Shown one piece after another: positions 54,151-55,003 of a stretch of DNA of 56,522 nucleotides. The DNA lies in sequence record PQ783785; one strand, written 5' to 3'. Numbering within the stretch: position 1 is the first letter of the stretch; every line of letters starts with the position of its first letter. The translations under genes and the position numbers were made by a program. The notes under the pieces are model-generated. The model was given only the letters and a program-made list of their open reading frames with translations, was not told the DNA's origin and did no database searches. Origin of the DNA: Escherichia phage PDP46.

Positions 54151-54437
54151 ATGAGCACTAAACTTCAACTTGCCGTTAATGGTAAATACTTTGACCAGAT
54201 TAAAAATGGTGAAAAAACCGAAGAATACCGTTTGTTCAATGACTACTGGAAAAACGTTTAATTAACCGAACCTATGACAGGTTAATCATCACTCGTGGTT
54301 ATCCGCGCAAAGATGACAACGAACGGATTCTGAATATGCACTATCGAGGTTATGAAATAAAAACAATCAATCATGAATTTTTCGGAAATAATCCAGTGAA
54401 AGTATTCGCTATAAAACTTGAGGTACAACCATCATGA
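54151..54437 (+). pseudogene. ASCH-domain-like gene split by a -1 frameshift at an A-run
   Basis: Frame 1 gives MSTKLQLAVNGKYFDQIKNGEKTEEYRLFNDYWKNV-stop; -1 frame continues LLEKRLINRTYDRLIITRGYPRKDDNERILNMHYRGYEIKTINHEFF...; junction at GGAAAAAC ~54249-54255. Confidence 0.4.
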
Positions 54438-55003
54438 CACCTGAACAATTCGCAACAGCAGCACACGGTGATCAACTTCGTAAATATACCAACGACCCAT
54501 ATATTAACCACTGCCGGAACGTTGCTGAAATGGTTAAACGCTATGGTGGTACGCCGGATATGGTTACCGCTGCCTGGCTGCATGATGTCGTTGAAGATAC
54601 ACCCGTGACCGTGGGTGATGTGTGTTCGCAGTTCGGTGAGACTGTAGCACGTTATGTTGATCAGCTTACTGATGTGAGTCGTCCACACCACGGCAACCGT
54701 GTTAAGCGTAAAGCACGGGACATCGACCATTTATCACGGGCTGAACCTGTGGTGAAAACTATAAAACTGTGTGATCTGCTGGATAACACCTCTTCAATTG
54801 TCCGACACGATCCGAAGTTTGCTGTAACATACCTGGCTGAAAAACAACTCATGCTTGCTCACCTGTCAGACGCAAGCAACCAGGAGCTATACGCGCTTGT
54901 TGAGCGTGAATTGTTTAAAGCTAAATACAAACTAACGAACGTCCAGTTGACCGCGTTTGACAAACACTACGACGCACTGGTTAAAGCGATGGGGGAGCTG
55001 TGA
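54434..55003 (+). CDS. HD-domain phosphohydrolase (RelA/SpoT-type alarmone hydrolase-like)
   Basis: 189 aa; AAHGDQLRKYTNDPYINHCRNVA and WLHDVVEDT give the H..HD..ED signature. Confidence 0.65.
   Translation: MTPEQFATAAHGDQLRKYTNDPYINHCRNVAEMVKRYGGTPDMVTAAWLHDVVEDTPVTVGDVCSQFGETVARYVDQLTDVSRPHHGNRVKRKARDIDHLSRAEPVVKTIKLCDLLDNTSSIVRHDPKFAVTYLAEKQLMLAHLSDASNQELYALVERELFKAKYKLTNVQLTAFDKHYDALVKAMGEL

Follow-up and report, generated by a model that had tools for sequence, protein, structure and literature searches.

A stand-alone small alarmone hydrolase of the RelA/SpoT type encoded by Escherichia phage PDP46

What would a siphophage do with a RelA/SpoT-type hydrolase that comes without a synthetase, and on which substrates would such an enzyme act in the infected cell? 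The question is raised by an open reading frame (ORF) for a 189-aa protein in the genome of Escherichia phage PDP46 (sequence record PQ783785), whose whole sequence of 56,522 nucleotides is called the window below. An initial annotation, made from the letters alone, placed the ORF on the plus strand at positions 54434-55003, read in its product the signature of the hydrolase domain of RelA/SpoT-family (RSH) enzymes and suggested that a phage copy could degrade alarmones. That small alarmone hydrolases (SAHs) of phages degrade alarmones and thereby weaken the stringent response, or a defence that relies on alarmones, is a hypothesis already published (Jimmy et al. 2020). Phage-encoded SAHs are already known as a kind, and orthologs of the one considered here are already present in GenBank under generic names.

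In this work we have followed up the annotation by computational analysis. The protein, designated SAH in the following, belongs to the RSH hydrolase family and is a single-domain small alarmone hydrolase; the signal for this assignment lies far above chance. On balance we hold it probable that SAH is a catalytically competent, stand-alone, Mn2+-dependent 3′-pyrophosphohydrolase that would cancel growth arrest or abortive infection based on 3′-pyrophosphorylation, its substrates and the benefit to the phage being what we infer.

Family membership, active site and closest relative

The ORF was found in the sequence and in the list of open reading frames exactly as annotated, running from an ATG at 54434 to a TGA at 55001-55003, and the motifs quoted in its support were located at aa 11-18 (HGDQLRKY), 26-31 (HCRNVA) and 48-56 (WLHDVVEDT) of the product. 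A comparison with HD_4 and RelA_SpoT models had been proposed as a check. SAH matched the Pfam family HD_4 (PF13328) with 56.8 bits (E 2.9e-15, gathering cutoff 27.2 bits) over profile positions 3-132 of 156, and the precomputed Pfam assignment of its close homologs is likewise PF13328 in all cases. The NCBIfam model TIGR00691 spoT_relA was matched with E 3e-21, the match being confined to the hydrolase part at the N terminus (profile positions 4-122 of 687), and phrog_990 ("metal-dependent phosphohydrolase") with E 5e-40. A weak second match to the generic Pfam HD family (22.6 bits) completed the Pfam results, in which no RelA_SpoT synthetase (PF04607), TGS or ACT domain was found; the short length of the protein and the restriction of the long-RSH matches to the hydrolase part agree with the absence of a synthetase domain that had been claimed. 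A word-indexed protein search with SAH returned 1,878 proteins at E<1e-5, mostly single-domain HD_4 proteins of 165-175 aa with 50-60% identity.

Solved structures point the same way. All 22 matches with E<0.01 between SAH and the sequences of solved structures were RSH hydrolase domains: Listeria Lmo0812 (4e-15), human MESH1 (1.5e-13), Pseudomonas aeruginosa PaSAH (1.8e-5) and Aph1 of Bacteroides caccae (0.005), and further fly Mesh1, the hydrolase domains of Rel and SpoT, and SAHs of Leptospira and Corynebacterium. When a profile of the 40-member SAH family was used instead, RSH hydrolases accounted for 23 matches out of 23, with human MESH1 first (4.8e-25) over almost its full length. The AlphaFold2 model of SAH, made from the 40-member alignment, is all-helical, with a predicted local distance difference test score (pLDDT) of 97.5 and a predicted template modelling score (pTM) of 0.92. 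In a Foldseek search of this model against the PDB the best 50 matches were without exception RSH hydrolase domains, human MESH1 being the best of them with a template modelling (TM) score of 0.76 and a root-mean-square deviation of 2.0-2.1 Å over about 169 columns. Fold-search neighbours of SAH were also found in many jumbo and other phages. The initial annotation had named best matches to unrelated HD phosphohydrolases, for example dNTPases, as the result that would speak against it; no dNTPase, dGTPase/SAMHD1-type or other non-RSH HD family was found among the sequence, profile or fold matches of SAH, and all of the best matches, RelH among them, were RSH hydrolases. The RelA/SpoT signature has thus been borne out by HD_4, TIGR00691, and the structure and profile matches.

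The three motifs RKYTxxPYxxH, HDxxED and KLxDxxxN, which are specific to RSH enzymes, are all present in SAH (Table 1). Residues H11, R16, K17, Y18, T19, P22, Y23 and H26 of the first, H50, D51 and E54 of the second, and K111, D114 and N118 of the third are invariant in the 40 family members, and D55 is conserved in at least 90% of them. The metal, catalytic and phosphate-binding roles of the corresponding residues in MESH1 are known from work on MESH1 and RelSeq; the residue numbering of MESH1 was fixed here by the D66K mutant chain (5vxa/9chy). Because the metal-ligand, catalytic and phosphate-binding residues are intact, SAH looks catalytically competent. These conserved residues, together with the 52% identity to an SAH of Salmonella phage SSU5 described below, lead us to predict that it would remove the 3′-pyrophosphate from (p)ppGpp or a related substrate in an Mn2+-dependent manner.

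The catalytic core is followed by a C-terminal tail with helices predicted at aa 150-165 and 169-188 (pLDDT >95). The last of them (aa 169-188) occurs in the 9NA-like clade alone and aligns only with P0002-P0004. The tail (aa 146-189) is constrained, with a proportion of nonsynonymous differences (pN) of 0.03-0.16 against 0.57-0.83 for synonymous ones (pS), and the clade-specific last helix possibly serves in oligomerisation.

The closest relative with a link to published function is SSU5_099 of Salmonella phage SSU5, which is 52% identical to SAH over aa 6-147, that is over the whole catalytic core (E 1e-45). It was reached through a short DNA match to the SSU5-like phage-plasmid pJN2-26, whose HD protein is 51% identical to SAH. 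In the record of SSU5 an HD_4 gene occurs at one place only, SSU5_099, and for this reason we infer that SSU5_099 is the published PaSpo^SSU5. Like SAH, it is a stand-alone phage HD_4 hydrolase from an enterobacterial phage, with no adjacent synthetase and with identical catalytic motifs, and both proteins give the same pattern against the PDB, strong to Rel, Lmo0812 and MESH1 and weak to PaSAH. The two differ in their C-terminal tails, which are unrelated, in length (213 aa for SSU5_099, 189 aa for SAH) and in their phages, SSU5 being a temperate phage-plasmid of 103 kb and the phage of SAH a 56.5-kb 9NA-like siphophage.

Table 1 Coordinates in the window of the SAH gene, its motifs and the putative signals around it
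Feature	Coordinates	Strand	Basis
Coding sequence of the 189-aa stand-alone RelA/SpoT-type hydrolase (SAH)	54434..55003	+	ORF list, HD_4, fold, SSU5_099 identity, dN/dS (ratio of nonsynonymous to synonymous substitution rates)
Motif aa 11-26, HGDQLRKYTNDPYINH: substrate-phosphate-binding R16/K17/Y23 and first metal ligand H26 (MESH1 H35)	54464..54511	+	MESH1 3nr1/5vxa alignment
Motif aa 48-56, WLHDVVEDT: metal ligands H50/D51 (MESH1 H61/D62), catalytic pair E54/D55 (MESH1 E65/D66)	54575..54601	+	MESH1 alignments
Motif aa 111-118, KLCDLLDN: fourth metal ligand D114 (MESH1 D122), N118 (MESH1 N126)	54764..54787	+	MESH1 alignment
C-terminal helical tail, aa 146-189	54869..55000	+	Family alignment, AlphaFold2 model, pN/pS
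Ribosome binding site (RBS) GAGG, 10 nt 5′ of the SAH ATG	54420..54423	+	Read from sequence
Candidate sigma-70 promoter TTGACA-17-GATAAT (11/12), head of the rightward gene string	52009..52037	+	Consensus scan only
Terminator-like hairpin, between the rightward string and the convergent gene 55390-56193	55284-55303	+	Consensus scan
Terminator-like hairpin, same interval	55365-55385	bidirectional	Consensus scan

Distribution and selection among 9NA-like phages

Judged by its sequence, the window is the genome of a 9NA-like (Nonanavirus/Sashavirus) siphophage closest to the BASEL phage Bas82, a group that we take to be virulent. The nearest records, with about 95-96% DNA identity over the region, are the Escherichia phages Bas82 (KarinMuster), PJ16 and AVIO78A, and the "Sashavirus" records 536P12 and BDX09P1. 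The BASEL paper placed Bas82 in Nonanavirus, noted that little is known of the biology of the group and did not find it especially robust against the BASEL defence panel.

At the DNA level the SAH gene was found in only seven phages among 50,697 records, all of them 9NA-like and all with the position of the gene kept: Bas82 (Bas82_0088), PJ16 (PJ16_095), AVIO78A, 536P12, BDX09P1, FSL SP-062 and SP069. The DNA identity of these orthologs is 95-97%, or 85-88% in the FSL phages. The product of Bas82_0088 is 98% identical to SAH and annotated "metal-dependent phosphohydrolase", while the orthologs of PJ16 and AVIO78A carry the label "polyphosphate hydrolase"; apart from such generic labels, the orthologs differ from the gene of PDP46 in that an ASCH-like gene stands upstream in the present window only. 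The position of SAH is also kept in three metagenomic 9NA-like genomes of greater divergence (83-88% aa identity), with variation in the small flanking ORFs.

The 9NA-like phage Sasha does without the gene. In the corresponding stretch of its genome (Sasha 4211-4500) one ORF of 63 aa replaces the whole 1.9-kb block between the ParB-like and DUF1382 genes, which in the window comprises six small genes and SAH (53072-55003), so that SAH can be regarded as accessory cargo of a variable island. Exchange of cassettes is also seen between the window and Bas82, with its boundary just before the shared RBS of SAH, at the conserved RBS/start junction GAGGTACAACCATCATG; this junction (GAGGTACAACCATCATGACAC) is the same in Bas82, although the cassette upstream is not.

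Strong purifying selection acts on the gene: dN/dS was 0.05-0.09 for five orthologs with dS from 0.14 to about 1.8. With a GC content of 48% the gene lies above the window as a whole (44%). No match to it was found with blastn sensitivity in 5,426 complete E. coli genomes, which leaves no prophage source in E. coli. More distant homologs were seen at the end of a prophage of Burkholderia pseudomallei, beside phage lysozyme and baseplate genes, near the terminase gene of a 42-kb phage contig, and in Endozoicomonas, surrounded by small unannotated ORFs. These homologs belong to early regions of phages or prophages.

Possible substrates and role in infection

The functional anchor for SAH is the work on its tested relatives. 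The stand-alone SAHs of the Salmonella phages PVP-SE1 (PbcSpo) and SSU5 (PaSpo), as well as human MESH1, have been shown to neutralise all five classes of toxic alarmone synthetases (toxSAS), PaSpo^SSU5 acting against CapRel, PhRel, PhRel2, FaRel2 and FaRel (Jimmy et al. 2020). In the Laub and Hauryliuk laboratories PaSpo^SSU5 has been co-expressed to detoxify CapRel^SJ46, FaRel2 and PhRel2, and the protein has been described in the literature as removing the tRNA modification. Pyrophosphorylation of the tRNA CCA end is reversed in vitro by MESH1 and ATfaRel.

The other characterised relatives stand further from SAH. MESH1 (HDDC3; PDB 3nr1, 5vxa, 9chy, 3nqw) has, like SAH, the full set of metal ligands as well as the catalytic ED pair; (p)ppGpp is among its substrates, toxSAS enzymes are neutralised by it, and in vitro it frees tRNA of the pyrophosphate. 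On the side of the differences, MESH1 is metazoan and known as an NADPH phosphatase too, its identity to SAH is only about 28%, and the extra helix at aa 169-188 is a property of SAH. PVP-SE1 gp220 (PbcSpo) and ATfaRel of C. marina, a type IV antitoxin SAH, neutralise all toxSAS and have the N-terminal H...HD..ED motifs in common with SAH. PbcSpo was considered as the closest phage relative and dropped, as the pairwise identity is 37% over 73 aa only (E 3e-6); it belongs to another SAH subfamily. Although gp220 (PVP-SE1 36782-37291) is a validated SAH, it scores 20.8 bits against HD_4, below the gathering threshold of 27.2, and Pfam-based annotation would therefore miss functional SAHs of the PbcSpo type in phage genomes. 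PaSAH (6yvc, 6z3n/o) and Aph1 (7smg) have the fold and the active-site chemistry of SAH; (p)ppGpp as well as (p)ppApp is degraded by PaSAH, which also confers protection from the toxin Tas1, and Aph1 is encoded on a temperate phage. Their fit to SAH is poorer (TM 0.65 for PaSAH and 0.48 for Aph1, with the E values given above), and Aph1 is (p)ppApp-specific and adjoins its cognate MuF-fused toxin, whereas no such toxin stands beside SAH. The weak match to PaSAH had at one point been taken to mean that SAH was not PaSpo-like, a view that was revised since SSU5_099, at 52% identity, matches PaSAH equally weakly. As a proxy for subgroup membership in the scheme of Atkinson 2011 and Jimmy 2020, SAH shares this identity with PaSpo of SSU5, is not close to PbcSpo, and lies nearer to Mesh1/Lmo0812 than to the PaSAH structures.

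From these relatives a sequence of events can be proposed. SAH would be transcribed with the rightward non-structural genes of the phage and made during infection. In the infected cell it would strip the 3′-pyrophosphate from (p)ppGpp and (p)ppApp, and it would probably also repair tRNAs that toxic alarmone synthetases of the CapRel type have pyrophosphorylated at the CCA end. As a result the infected cell could not shut itself down, and arrest or abortive infection would be cancelled. CapRel^SJ46 itself is borne by a temperate phage of Salmonella and by prophages of E. coli, that is within the hosts of the 9NA-like group.

Several points weigh against this proposal. The substrate range of an RSH hydrolase is not readable from its sequence, for the family spans (p)ppGpp-specific, (p)ppApp-specific and NADPH-active members. 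The papers that provide the functional anchor do not state that SSU5_099 is PaSpo^SSU5. The support for phage SAHs as agents against toxSAS in the searched literature comes from the rescue of toxicity by heterologous co-expression, and no phage SAH that overcomes toxSAS defence in a real infection was found there. A more specific version, in which the 9NA-like SAH is a dedicated counter-defence enzyme in natural use that, during infection, repairs tRNA 3′-CCA ends pyrophosphorylated by CapRel-type toxSAS from prophages of E. coli and Salmonella and destroys the (p)ppApp or (p)ppGpp that related effectors make, with the C-terminal helix tuning oligomerisation or access to tRNA, is put forward here as a tentative possibility.

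Among the alternatives, the one that survives best would have SAH directed at (p)ppGpp only: it would lower the pool made by RelA and SpoT and so keep the stringent response from throttling transcription, translation and replication in the infected host, while (p)ppApp and pyrophosphorylated tRNA would not be attacked to any relevant extent. Enzymes that hydrolyse (p)ppGpp, namely MESH1 and the Rel and SpoT hydrolase domains, are indeed among the best matches by sequence and fold, and RelA and SpoT are always present in E. coli and Salmonella, whereas toxSAS systems are sporadic. According to a 2026 preprint T7 is restricted by the stringent response, and its portal protein inhibits the synthetase activity of RelA/SpoT; phages can therefore gain from lowering (p)ppGpp, and an anti-stringent role is a serious alternative or additional role. 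Yet the SSU5 SAH, the closest tested relative, and MESH1 also neutralise the tRNA-targeting toxSAS, so that a narrow specificity would be the exception, and the gene is dispensable in the group, as Sasha demonstrates, which is easier to reconcile with a defence limited to certain strains than with a response common to all hosts. We therefore regard a purely (p)ppGpp-directed enzyme as rather unlikely.

A metabolic role has a considerably lower probability. SAH would then be a MESH1-like phosphatase that converts NADPH to NADH, or acts on another 2′/3′-phosphorylated cofactor such as 3′-phosphoadenosine-5′-phosphosulfate (PAPS), and so rewires redox or cofactor pools. By structure and by profile SAH matches human MESH1 best, which has been solved in complexes with NADPH and PAPS, and the bacterial orphan XccSAH hydrolyses NADPH as well as alarmones and alters NADH levels in vivo. 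The distance to MESH1, however, is much greater than that to the SSU5 SAH in terms of identity, NADPH is just one of several substrates of XccSAH beside the alarmones, and a benefit to phages from the dephosphorylation of NADPH is not documented in the searched literature.

Immunity or antitoxin proteins of the SAH/Aph type are known beside toxSAS or MuF-Apk toxins in phages and prophages, and SAH might by analogy be a type IV (ATfaRel/Aph1-like) antitoxin against a toxic synthetase of the phage itself, such as a (p)ppApp synthetase that is fused to MuF and enters the cell together with the DNA. An antitoxin of this class is recognised by a cognate synthetase that is adjacent or lies in the same element. 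No RelA_SpoT synthetase domain was found in the 15 ORFs of the window that lack an informative annotation (nine of them of 226-485 aa), nor in the neighbourhoods of the SAH homologs examined, and no synthetase or MuF-toxin was found among the annotations of Bas82. The MuF protein of the phage (13323-14282) has 319 aa, with the MuF domain ending at aa 307, which leaves no room for a toxin domain. Protection from a toxin of its own is thereby largely refuted and very improbable.

Finally, the view of SAH as a generic HD phosphohydrolase with no relation to alarmones (a dNTPase, nucleotidase or polyphosphate hydrolase), which the GenBank labels of its orthologs and the weak Pfam HD match might suggest, is refuted at the family level and merits hardly any credence, since the sequence, profile and fold matches included no dNTPase or other HD subfamily and the RSH-specific motifs are complete.

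Gene neighbourhood and significance

SAH is part of a tightly packed rightward gene string (52072-55260), as indicated by the start codon, which shares bases with the stop of the preceding ORF (ATGA, 54434-54437), and by the gap of 3 nt between its stop and the start of the following ORF. The rightward non-structural genes of the phage include a primase, a methylase, a SLOG protein, a ParB-like protein and small accessory ORFs. The promoter-like site and the hairpins listed in Table 1 may tentatively be said to bracket the string; the promoter call is itself tentative because promoter-like sites were not enriched over shuffled sequences. Sasha carries an annotated terminator at the place equivalent to that of the hairpins in the window.

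Among the neighbours named in the initial annotation, the split ASCH-like gene (54151-54437) does lie directly upstream of SAH, whereas the ParB-like gene (52308-53075) stands about 1.4 kb upstream and is not adjacent. On the plus strand, an ATG at 54151 opens the N-terminal part of the ASCH-like gene, which ends with a TAA at 54259-54261; the C-terminal part is read on in the -1 frame up to a TGA at 54435-54437. The shift falls at a run of five A (54250-54254, TGG AAA AAC), and the addition of one A gives an ORF of 95 aa whose product has a weak match to Pfam ASCH (E 0.022). The DNA is about 68% identical to intact genes for an "ASCH domain-containing protein" in the P1-like RCS47, Sf11 and lambdoid/Stx phages, and the cassette is absent from Bas82. 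A pseudogene, a sequencing error and a -1 slippage site are all conceivable; a programmed -1 frameshift at G_AAA_AAC and a one-base deletion or sequencing error in the A run fit equally well.

Further upstream on the plus strand, 51605-52000 encodes a 131-aa YspA/cpYpsA-related SLOG protein (PF10686, E 1e-19) with a nucleotide-binding fold, which belongs to the rightward block of SAH, is conserved in 9NA-like phages and carries the label "GTP-binding domain" in Bas82. The preceding ORF (50928-51608, plus strand, 226 aa) contains motifs like those of C5-cytosine methyltransferases (LFDGSG, FPDC, ENP) with no Pfam match at E<0.01, and gp74 of Sasha, at the equivalent position, is annotated "C-5 cytosine-specific DNA methylase". 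Directly 3′ of SAH, the ORF at 55006-55260 (plus strand) encodes a DUF1382 protein (PF07131, E 9.5e-23) of a lambdoid-phage family, and Sasha, Sergei and Solent have sequence in common with the window only from this gene onward. The convergent gene 55390-56193 (minus strand, 267 aa) contains a perfect 21-bp tandem repeat (55515-55632, 5.6 copies) that gives VEAPVAR repeats; in its ortholog, Sasha gp81, a "direct tandem repeat region" has been annotated. The 267-aa repeat protein gave no match in Pfam or PADLOC, and a PADLOC scan of SAH and seven neighbours gave no match to a defence model.

Since 2020 phage SAHs have been proposed to bypass abortive infection based on alarmones and toxSAS. The SAH of PDP46 offers a tractable case of such an enzyme, with a near-identical copy in Bas82, a model phage of E. 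coli K-12, a relative, Sasha, that naturally lacks the gene, and 52% identity to the protein used in the laboratory to detoxify CapRel. The label "polyphosphate hydrolase" in GenBank should become "small alarmone hydrolase (RelA/SpoT-type HD_4)". If the counter-defence reading is true, this enzyme would provide the first demonstration at the level of infection that toxSAS immunity can be reversed enzymatically.

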